A DNA stretch of 53,235 nt, the filler included, from Sphacelaria rigidula (taxonomy: Eukaryota): NCBI GenBank assembly GCA_964200075.2. It is 3 parts of 3 records of this genome, joined end to end, with 100 filler letters (N's around TTAATTAATTAA, not from the genome) between each part and the next. Parts side by side here need not be neighbours in the genome. Positions count along the whole stretch, not along the records: positions 1 to 17,695 come from CAXNAA020001015.1; 2 more parts are not named here. One strand, given 5' to 3'. Shown piece after piece: positions 1-43,600 of the stretch (position 1 is the first letter of the stretch; each line of letters starts with the position of its first letter). The position numbers were made by a program, and so were the translations under genes. Below the pieces are notes generated by a model. The model saw nothing but the letters and a program-made list of their open reading frames with translations, was not told where the DNA came from and did not search any database.

Positions 1-851
1 TTTTTTTGTTTTTTTTTTTCCCCCCCTCCCCTCCCACCGGCGCAACGCCCCGCCCCTTCCCCCCCTTTCCACCCCCCCCCCCCCCCCCCCCCCCCCTAAA
101 AAATCAGAGAAATTGACGGTTTCAGTCAGCGCTGTACGCTCGTAGCGTTGGTAAAATGCACTGGGAAAAATATATATTTATATGGATATATATTCGCGAC
201 TTGAGGAAATAAGACTGACAAAAAAAGTCACGAGGCACCATTGCTGGAACTGTGGGGAAAGGATAGTTTCGGGGTGAACCTCATTATACTGTCCAGCGTC
301 ATTTTAAAGAATTGCCTTTGGCTTATAGCTGCAAGCACACGACACTGTTACAGGCAGAAACAACACATTCGGAGCATTGGTCAAGTGAGAGCGAATGAAA
401 TTGCACGAAAAAAATGCTGGACACTCCCCCTGGCTACAAGTTGTTGGAGGATGTTGCAAGATAAACAAGGGTGACGGGTAAGTATTGCGCCAGTCAGGAA
501 GAGTTGGGAGACAATGGGAGTTAGAAGTCGAACAGTGGTGTCACGGTTCATTCGTTGCCGACTACTACGATGAATGTCCTAACGATCAGCTCTTGGCAGA
601 TTTCCACTGAAGCACACGACCATCGCACACGACTATCGCCAGAATGAGGATCGCAACTCGACGAAGCTGGTGGAACGTGGCGCTGAGATGTCAGGACCCC
701 ATGGTCCCACCACCTGCTTCGCACAAAGATAAAAGAAAAAAAATGGCCGATCAATTGTCATTCGAGGCCGCCGACAAAATACGCGAGAGCACGCCAACAT
801 ACCCCCGGGGTAATTTGAGCAACGGAATCGGTACAGGGAATAGAGTGTCAC

Positions 852-3800
852 CTACAATGTACCGTCTGCCCGAGGAGAAGAATCAGACACTCCTAGCTCC
901 AACTTCACGTTCGAATTCTCCTCTGCCTGTTCAACGTCCACATAACCAATGCCCAGGCGTTCACGTGCCATAGCCGGCGAACCACTCACCCGCCCCGAAC
1001 TCACACCACCACTGCCAATGACGCTACTACGACCACCTTCGTTGGTCCAATCTCTCGAACGAGGAGCCTGCTCTCGACCCTCCCTGCCCCTGTCGCAACC
1101 GGGTGTAGCAGAACGAACTACAAGCTCTACTTTCATCCAATCTTCTGCACTCGTCTCTGGAACAATTTGACCAGCCCTTGGAGCTGGGGATCTTGTTCGT
1201 ACAATCTGCCTGGGATCAGCGAACGCACTCCAGCGAGCACCAACAACGTCGTTCGCAACGGAATCCGAGCATCCTGCGCGCTTGCGTTTTGTTCCTCGTA
1301 CATCAGCAACGCTTCCTCCACCACCCTTTGTCGGGCTATGGACGTGAGTGCCCTCCCCAGTGTGAAGCCTCGCGGTGTCGGACACCGCAGCTGTTTTGTG
1401 TGCAGAGGTATGTTGTCGGAAGACCTCTGCCTCATCAACGGTGTGCCTCTTATCGACAGTGAACTTGAACCACCCCTCTTCACCGCACTTCTCGTTCCCC
1501 ACATTTACCATTCCCGGTCTTGCGTGCTTGGAGCAGAACTCCGAATTCATGCTTCCTGCCACACCATACGATGGCTTCGTGAAGCAGCCCTCGTGGCCGC
1601 ACTTCTCCCTCCCCAACCTTACCATTCCCGCCCTTGCATGCTTGGGGCAGAACTCCGCCTTCATGCTTCCCGCCGCACCAAACGAGGGATGCGCGGAAAA
1701 CGCCTCGTAGCCGCACTCCGTGTCCACCACATCCAACACTCTTGACCTGGCATACTTTGAGCAGAACTCCGCCCTTTTTATTCCCGCCACACCATATAAC
1801 GGCCTCGTTGAGGAGTCCTCGTAGCCGTACTTCTTGTTCATCACATTCACCGTACCCAACCTCGGATGCTCGGAGCAAACCTCCGCCTTCTCGCTTCCCG
1901 TCACACCATACGATGGCTGCGTGGAACAGCTCTCGTATCCCTGCTTCTTGTTTATCACACCAACCATACCCAACCTCGCATGCTTGAGGCAGAACTCCGC
2001 CTTCTTGCTTGCCGCCAAGCCATACGACGGCCTTCTGGAGCAGCCCTCGTAGCCGCACTCCTTGTTCATCACATCCACCATGCCCAACCTGGCATGCTTG
2101 AGGCAGAACTCCGCCTTCTTGCTTGCCGCCAAGCCATACGACGGAAGCGTGGAGCAGCCCTCGTGGCTGCACTTCTTGTTCACCACATTCACCGTTCCCG
2201 TCCTGGCGTGCTTGCAGCAGAACTCCGCCTTCTTGCTTCCCGCCACACCATACGACGGAAGCGTGGAGCAGCCCTCGTGGCCGCACATCTCGTGCACCAC
2301 ATCCTCCATTCCCGCCCTGGAATGCTTGGCGCAGAACTCCGCCTTCTTGCTTCCCGCTATACCATACGACGGCGTCGTGGAGCAGCCCTCGTAGCCGCAC
2401 TTCTTGTTCACCACATTCACCATGCCCGATCTGGCATGCTTGCAGCAGAACTCCGCCTTCTTGCTTCTCACTGTACCATACGAAGTCTTCATGGAGCAGC
2501 CCTCGTGGCTGCACCTCTTGTATACAACACCCACCATTCCCGCCCTGGAATGCTTGCGGCAGAACTCCGCCTTCTTGCTTCCCGCCACACCATACGACGG
2601 AAGCGTGGAGCAGCCCTCGTAGCCGCACTTCTTGTTCACCACATCCACCATGCCCGACGTGGCATGCTTGGCGCAGAACTCCGCCTTCTTGCTTCCCGCC
2701 ACACCATACGACGGCCTTGTCGAGCAGCCCTCGTGGTCGCACTTCTTGCCCACAACATTCACCATTTCCGACGTGGCATGCTTGGCGCAGAACTCCGCCT
2801 TCTTGCTTCCCGCTATACCATACGACGGCGTCGTGGAGCAGCCCTCGTAGCCGCACTTCTTGTACACCACATTCACCATACCCGATCTGGCATGCTTGCA
2901 GCAGAACTCCGCCTTCTTGCCTCCCGCCACACCATACGACGTCTTCATGGAGCAGCCCTCGTGGCCGCACTTCTTGTGCACAACACCCACCATTCCCGGC
3001 CTGGCATGCTTGCAGCAGAACTCCGCCTTCTGGCTTCCCGCCACACCATACGACGGCCTTATCGAGCAGCCCTCGTGGCCGCACTTCTTGTTCACCACAT
3101 TCACCATTTCCGACGTGGTATGCTTGGCGCAGAACTCCGCCTTCTTGCTTCCCGCTATACCATACGACGGCGTCGTGGAGCAGCCCTCGTGGTCGCACTT
3201 CTTGTACACCACATTCACCATTTCCGACGTGGCATGCTTGGCGCAGAATTCCGCCTTCTTGCCTCCCGCGACACCATACAACGGTATCGTGGAGCAGCCC
3301 TCGTAGTTGCACTTCTTGTTCACCACACCCACCATGCCCGACCTGGCATGCTTGCAGCAGAACTCCGCCTTCTTGCCTCCCGCTACACCATACGACGGCC
3401 TTGTGGAGCAGCCCTCGTAGCCGCACTTCTTGTGCACCACATTCACCATTCCCGATCCGGCATGCTTGAGGCAGAACTCCGCCTTCTTGCTTCCCGCTAC
3501 ACCATACAACGGCTTCGTAGAGCAGCCCTCGTGGTCGCACTTCTTGTTCACCACATTCACCATGCCCGACCTGGCATGCTTGCAGCAGAACTCCGCCTTC
3601 TTGCTTCCCGCTACACCATACGACGGCGTCGTGGAGCAGCCCTCGTAGCCACACTTCTTGCTCAAAACCTTCACCATTCCCGACGTGGCATGCTTGCAGC
3701 AGAACTCTGCGTTCTTACTTCCCGCCACACCATACAGCGGCTTCGTGGAGCAGCCCTCGTGGCCGCACTTCTTGTTCACCACATCCACCATTCCGGCCCT

Positions 3801-4301
3801 GGTATGCTTGCAGCAGAACTTCGCCCCGTTGCTTCCCGCCATACCATACGACGTTCTTGTGGAGCAGCGGTTGTAGCCGCACTTGTTGTGCACCACATCC
3901 ACCATTCCCGCCCTCGCATGCTTGAGGCAGAACTCCACCTTCTTGCTTTCTGCCACACCATACAATGGTCTTGTGGAGCAGCCCTCGTAGCCGCACTTCT
4001 CGTTCACCACATCCACCATTCTTACCCCAGCGTGCTTAGAGCAGAACTCCGCCTCGTGGCCCTGTACACTGTGAGATGGCTTAGAGCAGCCTTGGGTGAT
4101 GCACACTTTCTGGCTACGTCGACCACCGGGTTCTTCTTGTTGTGCTCTCTTGAAAACTAACTGCTCCGGAAGCACAAATACCCAGACGGCAGAACATACC
4201 TCGTGAGCCATGGGGTGAGAGTGAGTTGAAATGGTTTGCATGACAAGTGGCGTTGCTTTTACGGCACATACTCCGGGGATAATGTAGCCGCCTGCAGTCA
4301 A
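852..4301 (-). CDS. EsV-1-7 cysteine-rich repeat protein (~23 tandem 38-aa C-x4-C-x14-C-x2-H repeats plus low-complexity C-terminal tail)
   Basis: 1149-aa ORF with repeats of consensus KKCGYEGCSTxPSYGVAGSKKAEFCxKHAxxGMVxVVN. This matches the EsV-1-7 motif known from Ectocarpus virus 1 and expanded in brown algae. The stop is at 852. The true start is uncertain: a pyrimidine-rich CAG near 4161 may be a splice acceptor, so the first ~47 ORF codons may be intronic. Confidence 0.9.
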   Translation of the reverse strand: MTAGGYIIPGVCAVKATPLVMQTISTHSHPMAHEVCSAVWVFVLPEQLVFKRAQQEEPGGRRSQKVCITQGCSKPSHSVQGHEAEFCSKHAGVRMVDVVNEKCGYEGCSTRPLYGVAESKKVEFCLKHARAGMVDVVHNKCGYNRCSTRTSYGMAGSNGAKFCCKHTRAGMVDVVNKKCGHEGCSTKPLYGVAGSKNAEFCCKHATSGMVKVLSKKCGYEGCSTTPSYGVAGSKKAEFCCKHARSGMVNVVNKKCDHEGCSTKPLYGVAGSKKAEFCLKHAGSGMVNVVHKKCGYEGCSTRPSYGVAGGKKAEFCCKHARSGMVGVVNKKCNYEGCSTIPLYGVAGGKKAEFCAKHATSEMVNVVYKKCDHEGCSTTPSYGIAGSKKAEFCAKHTTSEMVNVVNKKCGHEGCSIRPSYGVAGSQKAEFCCKHARPGMVGVVHKKCGHEGCSMKTSYGVAGGKKAEFCCKHARSGMVNVVYKKCGYEGCSTTPSYGIAGSKKAEFCAKHATSEMVNVVGKKCDHEGCSTRPSYGVAGSKKAEFCAKHATSGMVDVVNKKCGYEGCSTLPSYGVAGSKKAEFCRKHSRAGMVGVVYKRCSHEGCSMKTSYGTVRSKKAEFCCKHARSGMVNVVNKKCGYEGCSTTPSYGIAGSKKAEFCAKHSRAGMEDVVHEMCGHEGCSTLPSYGVAGSKKAEFCCKHARTGTVNVVNKKCSHEGCSTLPSYGLAASKKAEFCLKHARLGMVDVMNKECGYEGCSRRPSYGLAASKKAEFCLKHARLGMVGVINKKQGYESCSTQPSYGVTGSEKAEVCSEHPRLGTVNVMNKKYGYEDSSTRPLYGVAGIKRAEFCSKYARSRVLDVVDTECGYEAFSAHPSFGAAGSMKAEFCPKHARAGMVRLGREKCGHEGCFTKPSYGVAGSMNSEFCSKHARPGMVNVGNEKCGEEGWFKFTVDKRHTVDEAEVFRQHTSAHKTAAVSDTARLHTGEGTHVHSPTKGGGGSVADVRGTKRKRAGCSDSVANDVVGARWSAFADPRQIVRTRSPAPRAGQIVPETSAEDWMKVELVVRSATPGCDRGREGREQAPRSRDWTNEGGRSSVIGSGGVSSGRVSGSPAMARERLGIGYVDVEQAEENSNVKLELGVSDSSPRADGTL
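1490..4105 (-). repeat. 114-bp coding tandem repeat (EsV-1-7 array)
   Basis: The motif gcagaactccgccttcttgcttcccgc recurs every 114 bp. Central units are near identical; the first unit and the last four are degenerate. Confidence 0.95.
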
Positions 4302-17695: not shown

Positions 17696-17795
17696 NNNNN
17701 NNNNNNNNNNNNNNNNNNNNNNNNNNNNNNNNNNNNNNNTTAATTAATTAANNNNNNNNNNNNNNNNNNNNNNNNNNNNNNNNNNNNNNNNNNNN
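17696..17795. other. Artificial contig linker (N44-TTAATTAATTAA-N44)
   Basis: Exactly 100 bp with stop codons in all six frames. Identical to the linker at 35467-35566. Confidence 0.97.
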
Positions 17796-17984: not shown

Positions 17985-18356
17985 TGACGGTTGTGACGTT
18001 CATTCACACGTCACAAACGTATAATCATGTGACATGTGACGTTAATTGTGACGTGCAACGTCAATTGCGACGTGTAACGTCAATTGCGACGTGTAACGTA
18101 TAAAATACGATACACGTCACGTGAAACGTTTCAAAATACGTTACTTTGACGTATTAAAAGATATACGTCACGTCACGTCACATTTGTGACGTATCAAAAA
18201 ATTGAACGTTACGTCACGTCATATTTTTTCATAGGTACGTTACGTTACGTCACATTTGTGACGTATTCGAAAAACATACGGTACGTTACGTCACATCGTT
18301 GTGACGTACGTTTGTGACGTGTAACGTACGTGTAACGCGTAACGTAAAGAGCCCTG
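17985..18356. mobile_element. ACGT-rich subterminal array and probable hAT-type terminus
   Basis: Dozens of gtgacgt/acgtcac/taacgt motifs end abruptly at agagccctg (reverse complement CAGGGCTCT). The partner end was not found. Confidence 0.55.
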
Positions 18357-35466: not shown

Positions 35467-35566
35467 NNNNNNNNNNNNNNNNNNNNNNNNNNNNNNNNNN
35501 NNNNNNNNNNTTAATTAATTAANNNNNNNNNNNNNNNNNNNNNNNNNNNNNNNNNNNNNNNNNNNN
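35467..35566. other. Artificial contig linker (N44-TTAATTAATTAA-N44)
   Basis: Identical to 17696-17795. Confidence 0.97.
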
Positions 35567-35850: not shown

Positions 35851-37116
35851 AAATGGTCGTTTTCGTTGTTACATGTCTTTGTCCGGTCTGTGTTCTGGGT
35901 AATGCAAAGAAAAAATAGTCAGCAGTTTTAAAATCAAGTCTATATCCGGTATGTGTTATAGTAGTGCAAAAAGGAAAAAAGGTGATCTTCGTTATCTGAG
36001 TCTACATCCTGCCTGTGTTCTGCAAAAGATGATGGTCAGCTTCGTTATTTCATCTCTATGTTCGGGCTGTATTTTAGCCTAGTTAATGCAACGAAAAAAC
36101 GGATAGCTTCGCTATTTCATGTCTACATCGGTCTGTGGTCTAGTAGTGCAAAGACAAAAAACGCGCAGGTCCGTTATTTCATGTGTGTCCGGACTGTGTT
36201 CTTGTAGTGTAAGAGGATAATGGTCAGCTTCGTTATTTTATGTCTATGTCCGGTTCGTGTTCTGGAAATGCAAAGAAGAAATGGTGAGCTTCGTTATTGC
36301 ATGTCTTTATCCGGGCTGTGTTTTGGTACTGCAAATAAAAAATGGCTAGCTTCTTCAGCTCATGTACATGTCCGGTTTGTGCTCAGGTGATGCAAAAAAA
36401 ACATCGTCGGCTTCGTTGTTACATATTCCTATATCCGGGCAGTATTTTGGTTAATGCAAAGGCAAGAATGGTTGGAGTATGAGTATTTATTTCATGTCTA
36501 TATCCGGTCTGACACCTGGAAATGCAAAGAAAACGAGATGGCTATCTTCATTATTTCATGTCTATGATCTGACGTCTGGTAGTGCAAAGAAAAAATGGCC
36601 AGTTTCGCTACTTCATCTCCATGCCCGGCCTGTGATCTGGTCAATGCAAAGGACAATGGTTAGATCCGTTATTTCATGTCTATATCCAACCTGTGTTGTG
36701 GTGAAAAGAAAAGTTTGGTCAGCTTGGTTGATTCATGTCTAAATCCGGTTTGTGTTCAGGTAATGCAAAGAAAAATTGTTAGCTTCGTTACTTCATACCC
36801 GCATCCGGTCTGTGTTCTGGCACTGCAAATTCAAAATGGTTTGTTTCTATACTTCATGGCTATATCCGGGCTGTGTTCTAGTACTGCAAAGAAAATATGG
36901 GTAGCCCCGTCATTGGATGTCTATGTCCGGGCTGTGTCCTGGGTAATGCAGAGGATGAATTATCAGCTTTTTTAATTTCATGTCCATGTGTGAGCTGTGT
37001 TTTTATGCAAAGAAGAACGGTTCGCTTCGTTATTTCGTGTCTATATCCGGGCTGTGTTCTGGTTAATGCAAAGAAAATGGTCAGCTTCGTTACTTCATGT
37101 CTGCACCTGGTGTGTG
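35851..37116. repeat. Minisatellite, ~59-60-bp unit, ~21 diverged copies
   Basis: Consensus approximately atggtcagcttcgttatttcatgtctatatccgggctgtgttctggtaatgcaaagaaaa, repeated head to tail. Confidence 0.9.
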
Positions 37117-40600: not shown

Positions 40601-43600
40601 ATTGGGTTCTATTAACCCAAAGCTTTGATGAAATCGCATCTGCTGCCGTGATCCACATATTATGAAAATGCCATCCTACCAAGAGTGCATCACCCAGGTC
40701 GGCGTTAACGGCGGTGCTCGATTCTAAAGCCCACAACCTTCGTGCCAACTTGCCCACTGCTCATTAAACGTTCCGGTTGGTACCCACAGCCGCCCTCCAC
40801 GACTTCGTCTCTTCCCTGAACTTCAGATCGCGAGAACTAAATTTCGTTGCTAATCCATTCAGTGCGCCTCTCACCGAATAGGTCGGCCTCCTGCCCGCAA
40901 CCTTGATCACACCCCACTGCCCCGAAGTGGCGATTTGGGCGTATTGTTTGCCCGTTACGAGCTCCCCTGTACTGGTGTCCCAAACATACGCGAGGCAATT
41001 TCTCCCACACCCCAGCAGGAATCTCTGATCAGGGCTGAACGATAAATGGGTCACCCCCTGACAGAGGGGAGGGGATGGGCGGACGGAGCGGTGGAGAAGG
41101 GGGAGGGGCGGGGGGGGAGGGGTACTCATGGTATTGCACGCCGTAGCTATATGACCATTGACCTCGCATCCTTACCAAGCCGGGACAGAGCGCGCCGGGG
41201 TTTTGCCGGATCAGGCTCGCAATCAATCACCAGACGTGAAGCGCCGTGGTGTGTTCGACGCGGCGCGTGAATGATGAGCTGCGTCATGCTAAAATTGTTC
41301 GGCTCGAAGTCTACTGATTATCTTGTATTTCGATGACAGTCTCCAGTGAGCTGCTTCATTTTCTGGTGTTGCCACTTCCAGAGACAGCCGCGGGTCACAC
41401 ACTGCCCCGGGCGTCTCACCATCAGAGGTGGAGGAGGTGCTAAAAAAATGGGCAGAAACGGTGGAAGGGAATGCCAATGCGCTCATCGTGATTCCACTGA
41501 TATCTCCCGGTGGCGGCTTCATGATATCGGTACTGTCTGCGCACTGGTTGAACTGAGCTCAGCATGCCGTGAAGGCCAGTCAAAGCTCAATTCCACGTTC
41601 ACTCAACGCATTGGTACTTCACCGAGGTACGGTCTCGCGGTGTGCAGTATGACGTATACCTGGGTAGAGGGAACGATAACTCCACAACGCCGACAGTAGC
41701 TCCCCGACGTCAAAGAGCTGCCACACTGAACATGCCAGACGCCCAGTTGCACCGCTCTATTGCACGACTGAAGCATGAGGTTACCAACAGTCTACGACTC
41801 TGTGGACTCTCTGCACAGAATGATCGTATTTGCAGACGTCATTTTCCGGTAGCCCTTCTTCGAGAAACGGATTACACTATATTGGATCCGTTGATGCAAC
41901 GGACGGTACGCGAACGCTCATGTCACCTCACTCAATCCTTGCAGCTCGAACAATCTTGTTCGGGTAGCGTAGTCCCACACAAAGACAGGCGCAGGGAATC
42001 CTTTGCGTCGCGTGGATCCGGATTGGCCTTGATTTCCAGGTACCATGCATTCGATGCGTGCCAGGGGGAAGTAGAAGAGGAGAAGAGAAAGAGAACTCAA
42101 CAGGTGTATTCGTCATTCGAGAGTGGGTGTTCAGAGTTCCCCTGAAACGCTCGACAACGGTGAGCGTTACACATTCAGCGCCCGAGAGGAAGGTGGCCTG
42201 TCGTGCACGACGCAAAATCATGCCCCGTTTCTCCAACAGGCAATATCCTTGAACGAAAGTGCCTTCGCTACGTTTCTGCCAGCAGGGCACGGCGTTGGGC
42301 ACTATCCGGGCACAACCTGTTATTTCGAACCATTGCTCGTAGCAGCAGTAAGCCACGTAACTTACGCTTAATTCGACCGTATGCTCAGATCCTCGCTTGA
42401 TTGGTTCCGATCAAAACTTAAAATATGGGCAATCACACAGTGGAGTAAAAAGACCGCCACCGGCTGAAGAAGCAACTTGTTCTCCGTCATCGACAGCGAA
42501 CCCAGCTCAAGTGTTTTTACAACAGTCAATCAAGCAAACACGAGGAAAGTGTTTTCTGTCCTCCAACCTCATCTTGCTCGCTCTATTTCCTGCAGTTCAT
42601 TTCTATGTGCGCAAGGTTCCGTGTACACAGACACACAGGCACGCACTGGAGGCATGCACAGGAGGCACGCAAGAATACGTGGTTAGTACAAGCCCCCGCG
42701 CCCCGATCATCTAGTGGTACAACTTGCACCATTAAGGAGGAGAAATGCGGGTTCGACTCCCGGTAGATATACTATTTTCACCTTTTTTTTTCTGAGAAGT
42801 ACCTGATTTCCGTCGTCGGAAACATGAGAACGCGGGAAGCGAAAGTGTAATATTCGACGGGAGTCTACGTGCTGCAAGGGGGGCTGATCTGATTGGCGAC
42901 ACCAAACTGTAAGGCATGTACCGGGAGGTAATCCCTGGAGAGATGAGTTAATCCCTCGAGACCACGAACTCGTCCCGAGGAATGAGACAGATTTGAAAGG
43001 AGACGAAAACATTCAAACAAAGAGTGCAGACACCATCTAATACACCGTGAAATTTACCCTTTTCTTGTCATGTTTATCGGTCACACTTCATGAATCTCGT
43101 AGTTTTGTTTTCCTCCCCGCTCCCGTCATCTTCAGTAACCTCCATGCCAACTTTCCACAACGTACCTGTGGCAATAAGCGAACCCGACGGGGACACTGCA
43201 AGGGCGCTGATCTCCATGTCATGACCTCGCAGCAGTTGTTGCTGGTGAGGATCTGAAATGCTACCTGATCGCATCATCGTACAAAATCAGAAATATTCCA
43301 TTGGATAGTTAGACGTACGTCACAGTTCCAAGCATGTAATAGGAATCCCGGCAGTGTGAATTATCTGCCTGTCGGAGTGGTGAAGCAACCACTGCACCTC
43401 CCTTGGAGCTACGGGGCCTGGTTGATAGTAGTGTACAATCTAGAGTTGGAGACTGCAAAAACTATACCGGAATCGCCATCATATCCGGGGTCGAAGCAAA
43501 GATAGACGTTTAGACAGCGTGTCTGGGGCGGAGGGGGGAAGGTGGGCACCTGACCCAGGGCTCACATTTTCACACTTCGATTCAAAATTGCGATAAATTC

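Follow-up and report, generated by a model that had tools for sequence, protein, structure and literature searches.

We show that a minus-strand ORF of Sphacelaria rigidula, which contains 114-bp tandem repeats and a non-repeat tail, encodes an unusually long, otherwise ordinary member of the known EsV-1-7 family. Based on the architecture of the array, comparisons between its units and searches for relatives, we propose, at a probability of about 0.6, that the array has grown within the gene, that some sites of each unit are free to vary, and that the product is probably a nuclear binder of polyanions.

The protein (P0001) matches the Pfam family PF19114 (EsV_1_7_cys) in 22 stretches, scoring 982.7 bits in total where the cut-off is 25 (E=0), confirming the family membership and the C/C/C/H scaffold that the first-pass annotation had read from the DNA. 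Its estimate of about 23 tandem 38-residue units is also upheld, as we identify 23 units followed by a decayed 24th (Table 1). At the DNA level, TRF reports 22.6 copies of a 114-bp unit at 1483-4054 with 81% matches, and the whole array lies within the single minus-strand ORF. A Pfam match to DUF1490 was set aside, as no single stretch passes by itself. A higher-order repeat was likewise rejected: TRF scores 228 and 342 bp slightly above 114 bp, and the matrix of differences between units is without a clean two- or three-unit periodicity.

Table 1. Features of the EsV-1-7 repeat gene; positions count along the window, the whole 53-kb stretch of DNA that was analysed.
Feature	Position	Strand	Description
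EsV-1-7 repeat protein ORF (P0001)	852..4301	-	1149 codons plus stop at 852-854; true start uncertain
First in-frame ATG, candidate start	4239..4241	-	ORF residue 21, read from sequence; possible exon upstream
Unit 1	3996..4109	-	aa 67-102; four ligands kept; spacer 2 residues shorter, C-x4-C-x14-C-x2-H; position 24 = Ser
Units 2-19	1944..3995	-	18 canonical 38-aa units, C-x4-C-x16-C-x2-H, no two identical
Units 20-22, decayed	1602..1943	-	one to three ligands missing in each
Unit 23	1488..1601	-	full ligand set
Remnant unit 24	1410..1487	-	aa 939-964, CGEEGW...AEVFRQH; same decayed unit kept in paralogues
Non-repeat C-terminal tail	855..1409	-	common to 9 shorter proteins
KRKR basic cluster	1278..1289	-	inside conserved GSVAD-VRGTKRKRA block
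MKVE	1125..1136	-	conserved hydrophobic-K-x-E motif
VKLE	897..908	-	inside conserved C-terminal NVKLELGV motif

An exact 38-residue register holds for 22 units (aa 103-938), the canonical C-x4-C-x16-C-x2-H spacing is found in 19 of the 23 units (u2-u19 and u23), and the ligand set is intact in 20 of 23. Each 38-residue unit would most likely form a small module that holds one zinc ion via Cys1, Cys6, Cys23 and His26. In the AlphaFold2 model of four units (mean pLDDT 82; 52 for a single unit), each unit repeats a strand at 12-14, a bridge at 22, a helical turn at 24-26, between Cys23 and His26, and a strand at 31-33. In the available parts of the literature, zinc binding by EsV-1-7 motifs is put forward as a hypothesis only (10.1101/2024.02.19.579948; PMC12477816; PMC12629598), and we found there no zinc- or nucleic-acid-binding data for any EsV-1-7 protein. 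Units 2-19 represent the homogenised centre of the array, with 6-15 nucleotide differences per 114 nt among central units as compared to 17-41 for edge units. In agreement with this division, central units group together in the unit tree and some edge units join units of paralogues, for example u21 with unit 5 of P0045, in a FastTree reconstruction on 38 residues that is poorly resolved. In the decayed units, Cys1 is replaced by Gln (u20), Cys1, Cys2 and His by Tyr, Ser and Tyr (u21), and Cys2 by Phe (u22). Such loss of ligands could signal decay of the gene.

Two unnamed Sphacelaria rigidula proteins, CAM9625022.1 (P0045) and CAM9749683.1 (P0055), are 65-70% identical to P0001 across its final units and complete tail. 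In both, the decayed unit that closes the array, the KRKR block and the NVKLELGV motif at the C-terminus recur, and position 24 is nearly always Ser. They hold 7 and 4 units, respectively, versus 23 here, and both gene models begin mid-unit, perhaps through truncation. The units of P0045 that align to u20 and u21 keep all ligands, and the one that aligns to u22 keeps Cys2 with His replaced by Gln. All four of the nine tail-sharing proteins that were looked up are assigned by NCBI to Sphacelaria rigidula. These shorter, tail-bearing paralogues surfaced through profile search alone, and a query with the tail against proteins of 631-2011 aa returned no match. P0001 itself is absent from the public protein collections searched, where the best protein of near length reaches 49% identity. 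The highest numbers of PF19114 stretches seen elsewhere are 14, among the best 150 of 3645 representatives, and 11, among 43 near-length matches. A protein-atlas search gave family-level neighbours only (scores up to 0.87), and close viral or metagenome relatives were not found, the contigs reaching 29-36% identity only.

The array is strongly basic, with a net charge of +66 and a pI of 9.2. Together with the conserved KRKR cluster of the tail, which on the basis of its motif is a putative nuclear localisation signal, this makes a nuclear, nucleic-acid-binding role plausible, and a nuclear location appears most likely from these sequence features. The conserved tail further contains two hydrophobic-K-x-E motifs, of which MKVE is presumably a candidate SUMO-site-like motif. 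The DNA coding for the second, VKLE, lies within a stretch of very high summed contig depth. Within positions 1-1482 of the window, contigs of four runs (three of them guessed to be RNA) cover 895-1300 with no differing letters, which is uninformative on transcription, and contigs of the guessed-RNA runs leave gaps in the 3' flank.

How the units differ from each other is central to any functional interpretation. Across the 22 units in register, amino-acid entropy peaks at positions 9 (2.46 bits), 24 (2.26) and 36 (2.15), followed by positions 29 (1.89), 33 (1.88) and 14 (1.73), while 10 of 38 positions are invariant among the 18 intact units. The residue strings listed by the first-pass annotation were reproduced exactly, both at positions 8-9 of u2-u19 and at position 24 (L C C C L C A A C C A A R C A C L L), as was the near constancy of the flanking codons, with TGC at codon 23 in all 22 units and AAG at codon 25 in 21 of them. 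Its statement that substitutions gather at a few fixed sites is upheld, with qualifications. Nonsynonymous changes counted on the tree of the 18 intact units are over-dispersed among sites (variance/mean 3.03, p=1.7e-9), and synonymous changes are over-dispersed too (1.96, p=4e-4). However, the variation is diffuse, as the six top positions hold 42% of the total entropy and at least two residues, each present in at least two units, occur at 16 of 38 positions; a confinement like that of TALE repeats accordingly finds no clear support.

Codon models that compare units within this one gene, applied to two unit sets in several fittings, return an M0 omega of 0.51-0.52 for units that are 5-23% divergent in DNA. 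A constrained class with omega 0.15-0.32 comprises about 67-76% of sites, demonstrating purifying selection on the scaffold, and a variable class with omega 1.7-1.9 comprises 16-29% of sites; both unit sets place positions 3, 9, 24, 29, 33 and 36 in it with posteriors above 0.75. In a tree-free count, these six sites account for 20 of 64 nonsynonymous state changes. Likelihood-ratio statistics are 7.04, 6.39 and 4.65 (2dlnL), depending on unit set and fitting; the first two correspond to nominal p of about 0.03-0.04 and leave room for weak positive selection. An omega above 1 is nevertheless not robust because the units have recombined with each other (incompatibility affects 56% of the informative pairs of sites; PHI-type permutation p=0.009) and because simulations under the neutral model M1a yield values at least as high as the observed 4.65 in 2 of 24 replicates with a single tree and 5 of 24 with two trees. 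The dN/dS at the variable sites is compatible with 1, and the variation resembles that of residues under ordinary loose constraint more than an established code for reading DNA or RNA.

Comparison to the nine paralogues refines this picture. Positions 3, 9 and 36 vary there as well; positions 24, 29 and 33 show conservation among the paralogues and have diversified in this gene only. Of the 41 paralogue units, 32 have Ser at position 24, as opposed to none of the 18 central units of P0001, which carry C, A, L or R there. Hence, simple relaxed constraint explains the pattern incompletely, and either a founder effect or diversification specific to this gene has to be invoked in addition.

We propose the following course of events. 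Unequal crossing-over and gene conversion within the gene would have brought the array to its 23 units, with selection retaining the ligands, glycines and hydrophobic residues of each unit. Between 6 and 10 probably exposed positions per unit would be free to change, in particular 3, 9, 24, 29, 33 and 36 and more weakly 2, 11, 14 and 16, and recombination from unit to unit would then reshuffle the variants, giving a different combination in every unit. In the nucleus, an extended polyanion, i.e. DNA, RNA or chromatin, is probably bound multivalently by the many lysines and arginines of the array, and the variable residues would tune the contacts made by each unit. We infer nucleic-acid binding from the net charge, the tail motifs and the domain fusions found elsewhere in the family. 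A helicase-associated HA domain is fused to EsV-1-7 repeats in 2 of 16 proteins scanned, and, in the parts of the sources available, EsV-1-7 repeats of Ectocarpus are described as fused to a Tc1/Mariner transposase (PMC12477816) and the family is hypothesised to consist of zinc-finger transcription factors (PMC12629598).

Alternatively, the units may be zinc modules akin to LIM, B-box or RING domains that form a multivalent protein-binding adaptor, the variable residues tuning the choice of partner. In the AlphaFold2 model of four units (mean pLDDT 82; 52 for a single unit), each unit repeats a strand at 12-14, a bridge at 22, a helical turn at 24-26, between Cys23 and His26, and a strand at 31-33. 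Foldseek against the PDB gave no match at E 0.001 or better, and a PDB sequence search nothing relevant. All the weak structural rows point to zinc modules of the kind this alternative invokes, namely the coronavirus nsp13 zinc-binding domain, LIM, B-box and GRF in Foldseek (E 0.8-10) and IDOL RING as the single row of a wide VIA-align search (Z 2.2), each of them below a useful threshold. PF19114 is present in 104 of the 104 closest representatives, Zf_WRKY19 in 7 and a second DNA-related domain in none of those scanned, and one relative matches Pfam CoV_NSP13_ZBD; these last two results speak for a protein-binding role, and the lack of a DNA-related partner domain counts against the polyanion binding proposed above. 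A nuclease domain was seen neither in these 104 proteins nor in the 16 mentioned above. However, the charge of +66 and the fusions to transposase and HA domains fit nucleic-acid binding better, and we therefore regard a protein-binding scaffold as unlikely.

The first-pass annotation suggested a recognition code, in which a short word of DNA or RNA would be recognised by each unit via positions 8-9, 24, 27-29, 33 and 36 and shuffling of the units would reprogram specificity. In this respect, the point estimate of omega for the variable class and the strongly basic array are as expected, and position 24 is conspicuous, with 11 nonsynonymous and no synonymous changes on the tree and the Ser of the subfamily gone from all 18 central units. 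In addition, the six-residue combinations at positions 3, 9, 24, 29, 33 and 36 are distinct in all 18 of these units. Arg, Lys, Thr, Asn, His, Tyr and Gln are residue kinds often in contact with bases, and these are what positions 9 and 36 carry; in contrast, the Cys, Ala and Leu of position 24 are atypical of base-contacting residues. As for the idea of fixed code positions, position 9 lends it support, ranking in the top five for variability in 9 of 12 other arrays, but positions 24, 29, 33 and 36 attain this rank in only 1, 1, 0 and 2 of the 12. Combined with the diffuse distribution of the variation and the neutral simulations and recombination that undermine an omega above 1, this renders a code of this kind quite improbable. 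We give slightly less credence again to its more specific form, with the 18 central units as gene-specific, recombination-shuffled specificity modules whose positions 9, 24, 29, 33 and 36 set the DNA or RNA word.

It is most improbable that the array is a recent runaway amplification, now drifting without function in a frame that is open merely for want of a stop in the unit: u20-u22 have lost ligands that the P0045 counterparts of u20 and u21 retain, the alternative frames of the array are likewise open over 724-764 codons, so that openness says little, and the protein is missing from public collections, yet about 70% of codons are constrained across units that differ considerably in DNA, most units have their ligands intact and the motifs of the non-repeat tail are conserved.

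That the gene belongs to an integrated phaeovirus (Nucleocytoviricota) is not supported, as no viral marker gene was detected among the 144 ORFs of at least 90 aa in the other 50 kb, where the sole Pfam match is a weak WD40. Giant-virus EsV-1-7 proteins, encoded on the IMG/VR contigs L001 and L002, hold 5 and at least 2 PF19114 repeats, respectively, of the same kind as here, at an identity of only 35-36%. These viral repeats adjoin Nucleocytoviricota-type genes (AEP primase, NUDIX protein and major capsid protein), unlike the gene described in this work.

P0001 resembles TALE, PPR/PUF and C2H2/KRAB arrays in that a conserved scaffold is repeated in tandem, in units of 28-38 aa, with residues that vary at fixed positions, and in that the array changes by recombination. 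P0001 has no sequence or fold relationship to any of these, the variation among its units is much less confined than in TALEs, and, as compared to KRAB-ZNF and PRDM9 arrays, diversifying selection is not established, the omega of 1.7-1.9 not being robust. Were the code reading true, EsV-1-7 arrays would join the programmable repeats that read nucleic acids as a fourth kind, one found specifically in brown algae and the giant viruses that infect them. A natural array of 23 units, accompanied by shorter paralogues with the same tail, represents a convenient test object for zinc and nucleic-acid binding and for specificity set by particular positions. If these positions do set specificity, the family would provide a new modular binding scaffold, and a route to understanding how genomes are regulated or targeted by brown algae and phaeoviruses.

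[quoted passage not shown] According to the parts of the sources available, the family is among the largest gene-family expansions of brown algae and includes the developmental regulator IMM (10.64898/2026.04.27.720984; 10.1101/2024.02.19.579948). P0001 belongs to this large expansion (described in 10.1101/2024.02.19.579948). The same source describes a tendency of EsV-1-7 genes toward tandem gene arrays, as opposed to the 53-kb window, in which no other member was found. P0001 is without any other Pfam domain, in agreement with what the available text reports for Ectocarpus members (10.64898/2026.04.27.720984). It differs from IMM in having 23 repeats rather than five (10.1101/2024.02.19.579948, as far as available), and in carrying a subfamily-specific tail in place of the N-terminal domain of IMM, which is absent here.

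The minus-strand ORF is a real gene, and its protein (P0001) is a new, unusually long member of the EsV-1-7 family. The heterogeneity among sites in this protein most plausibly reflects a conserved, probably zinc-binding scaffold together with loosely constrained positions that are reshuffled by recombination. [quoted passage not shown] Together with the codon analysis, this match shows that the coding frame is the minus-strand one; in the other frames, plus strand included, the unit contains no stop codons, which explains the long ORFs there as by-products. The canonical C-x4-C-x16-C-x2-H arrangement is present in 19 units (u2-u19 and u23); three more (u20, u21 and u22) are each missing between one and three of the ligands. 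The 39-nt stretch close to the 5' end of the ORF begins and ends with what look like splice signals, though it is very short.

Features of the EsV-1-7 gene and of the remaining window
Feature	Position	Strand	Remarks
ORF	852-4301	minus	single, 1149 codons; encloses whole 114-bp array
114-bp tandem array	1483-4054		22.6 copies, 81% matches (TRF)
N-terminal region	ahead of unit 1	minus	short, print of 38-residue register
Unit 1		minus	spacer two residues below normal length
22 units	aa 103-938	minus	exact 38-residue register
Decayed 24th unit	1410-1487, aa 939-964	minus	two ligands missing
C-terminal tail		minus	non-repeat, 185 residues
In-frame 39-nt stretch	4160-4199	minus	near ORF 5' end; GTATGT at start, CAG at end
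Run of 25 C	72-96		
Filler at record joints	17696-17795; 35467-35566		each one pair of 44-base N runs, 12 bases between
Short tandem repeats	18031-18226		rich in ACGT/TGACGT, directly after first N-run pair
Degenerate 61-bp tandem repeat	36032-37102		17.4 copies, 64% matches, 8% indels
ORF fragment, weak WD40 match	40767-41171	minus	E=6.4e-5, under gathering score

The residue strings that the first-pass annotation had read at positions 8-9 and 24 were matched exactly. The codons flanking position 24 are nearly fixed (codon 23 is TGC in 22/22 units, codon 25 AAG in 21/22), and entropy over the 22 units is highest at positions 9, 24, 36, 29, 33 and 14. The accompanying claim, that substitutions fall at a few fixed sites, stands as regards clustering and is less well supported as regards tight confinement. 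In the 18 intact central units (u2-u19), codon parsimony on the maximum-likelihood tree shows strong over-dispersion of nonsynonymous changes from site to site (variance/mean 3.03, p=1.7e-9), and 42% of the entropy falls on the six most variable positions (60% on the top ten). Synonymous changes are likewise over-dispersed (variance/mean 1.96, p=4e-4). Ten of the 38 positions are invariant in these units, and 16 show at least two residues each found in at least two units.

Recombination or gene conversion among the units is evident from a PHI-type permutation test (p=0.009), with 56% of the informative site pairs incompatible. Central units differ pairwise at 6-15 of 114 nt and edge units (u2-u4, u20-u23) at 17-41 of 114 nt, a pattern typical of arrays in which unequal exchange homogenises the middle. 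In the poorly resolved unit tree (FastTree), the central units fall together and several edge units group with units of paralogues. No clean signal of a higher-order period of 2 or 3 units was found in the array. The protein sequences of all 22 units are mutually distinct, and the 18 central units carry 18 distinct combinations at the six variable sites.

Selection was assessed using a purpose-written codon likelihood (GY94/F3x4) under models M0, M1a and M2a. About 70% of the codons are clearly under purifying selection, while the rate of the remainder cannot be told apart from neutral, its point estimate being somewhat higher.

Codon model fits among the units
Units and branches	M0 omega	M1a lnL	M2a lnL	M2a omega (sites)	2dlnL
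22, all branches optimised	0.51	-1139.72	-1136.20	0.32 (76%), 1.93 (16%)	7.04
18 intact, all branches optimised	0.52	-841.01	-837.81	0.23 (71%), 1.82 (28%)	6.39
18, branches proportional to nucleotide tree		-841.77	-839.45	1.67 (29%)	4.65

Sites 3, 9, 24, 29, 33 and 36 reach a posterior >0.75 in both unit sets, and the 18-unit set additionally flags 2, 11, 14 and 16. By parsimony, the six sites have accumulated 48.2 nonsynonymous vs 4.8 synonymous changes, and the other 32 sites 57 vs 34. A tree-free count, a lower bound obtained by joining the codons observed at each site in a minimum spanning tree, assigns 20 of its 64 nonsynonymous changes to the six sites, where omega is about 1.5-1.65, based on only 3 synonymous changes. 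Recombination inflates the M1a/M2a likelihood-ratio test. The nominal p of 0.03-0.04 is therefore weakened by the exchange among units and by neutral simulations (M1a, fitted parameters, fast pipeline), in which the statistic of 4.65 was attained in 2/24 replicates on a single tree and in 5/24 with separate trees for the two unit halves.

Variable positions of the unit: predicted element in the four-unit model, and number of 12 arrays from other proteins (each with at least five full units) in which the position is among the five most variable
Position	Predicted element	Arrays
3	knuckle	
9	loop after knuckle	9/12
24	helical turn	1/12
29	loop after helical turn	1/12
33	last strand	0/12
36	linker	2/12

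The entropy profile correlates with the mean of the 12 arrays (Spearman 0.48), dropping to 0.32 (p=0.07) when ligands and Met31 are omitted. In the tail-sharing paralogues (nine proteins, 41 units), positions 36, 9 and 3 vary most, with Ser at position 24 in 32/41 units, Ala at 29 in 28/41 and Asn or Asp at 33 in 35/41. Position 24 of the 18 central units is occupied by Cys (8), Ala (5), Leu (4) and Arg (1), never by Ser, which is retained in unit 1 and in three of the four C-terminal units. Based on these profiles, half of the variable set is family-generic and half peculiar to the expanded centre; this split fits a founder unit that then diversified locally, and equally fits gene-specific selection.

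Searching 1.84 billion representative proteins with an 18-unit profile gave 3645 matches at E<=0.001, and among the best 150 the highest count of matched stretches was 14, vs 23 units in P0001. The best match, the shorter paralogue P0045 (CAM9625022.1), has the same non-repeat tail, as do eight others (9/187 proteins compared), and the four tail-sharing proteins looked up all carry the name Sphacelaria rigidula at NCBI. The P0045 alignment pairs each of u17-u23 with one unit and continues through the decayed 24th unit and the tail (65% identity), hence the decayed unit is old and conserved. It is preserved near residue for residue in P0045 and in a further short paralogue, P0055 (CAM9749683.1), and given this conservation may have its own role. 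The P0045 units that correspond to u20 and u21 retain their cysteines, and the one corresponding to u22 retains Cys2 and has Gln instead of His. Summed contig depth jumps at 867-920, 1251-1300 and 1401-1482 in all four runs (743-1633 at 851-950 vs 29-71 nearby, with loose ends at 884, 885 and 920). The high-depth stretches encode the paralogue-conserved tail motifs NVKLELGV and SVADVRGTKRKRA, and are probably common to many paralogous copies at the DNA level.

The four-unit AlphaFold2 model (41-row alignment; mean pLDDT 82, pTM 0.42) predicts the same pattern in each unit: strands at 12-14 and 31-33, a bridge at 22, and a helical turn (24-26) that runs from Cys23 to His26; a single-unit model (pLDDT 52) was too poor for use. 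Foldseek with the four-unit model found no match at E<=0.001, the weak rows being other zinc modules, VIA-align returned a single row (Z 2.2), and a PDB sequence search gave no relevant match. Zf_WRKY19 (PF24906, a new Pfam family) is also matched by seven of 104 close relatives, a hint that plant WRKY19-type proteins may contain a related zinc module. Among the relatives, one matches the model of the coronavirus nsp13 zinc-binding domain, paralleling the weak Foldseek rows.

Charge, tail motifs and family fusions hint at a nuclear role, in which the protein may bind nucleic acid or chromatin. The array has a net charge of +66 and a pI of 9.2, and the tail contains a conserved GSVAD-VRGTKRKRA block. 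By consensus motif, this block is a putative nuclear localisation signal, and MKVE and VKLE, the two hydrophobic-K-x-E motifs also conserved in the tail, are candidate SUMO-type sites. Among 16 proteins scanned, EsV-1-7 repeats are combined with a helicase-associated HA domain (PF03457) in two (P0019 and P0021) and with a retrotransposon gag domain in one. An N-terminal EsV-1-7 domain is reported on an Ectocarpus Tc1/Mariner transposase (PMC12477816), and the family is hypothesised to comprise zinc-finger transcription factors (PMC12629598). However, no second informative domain was present in the 104 closest representatives, which counts against such a role.

Outside this gene, the window resembles gene-poor eukaryotic DNA. 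The 144 ORFs of at least 90 aa there yield one weak WD40 match and no viral or transposon domains, and no second EsV-1-7 motif occurs elsewhere in the window; the WD40-like fragment probably represents an exon of an adjacent gene.

The EsV-1-7 motif is described as a possible new zinc finger class, and the family as vastly enlarged in brown algae (up to 335 members in Ascophyllum, against 31-54 in sister taxa), its genes frequently lying in tandem clusters (10.1101/2024.02.19.579948). Ectocarpus members carry no other Pfam domain (10.64898/2026.04.27.720984), and IMMEDIATE UPRIGHT is the sole member with a phenotype. In the full texts searched, which do not cover all of the literature, no study of how sites vary within an array was found, and the sole passage found on positive selection concerns Ectocarpus orthologues rather than the EsV-1-7 family. 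The proposal that each unit reads a short nucleic-acid word via its variable residues appears quite unlikely, all the support found for it being analogy. Judging from the entropy shares, the dispersion and the tree-free count, clustering of variation in the P0001 array is real but much more diffuse than in TALE proteins, in whose repeats the variation between units is far more confined.
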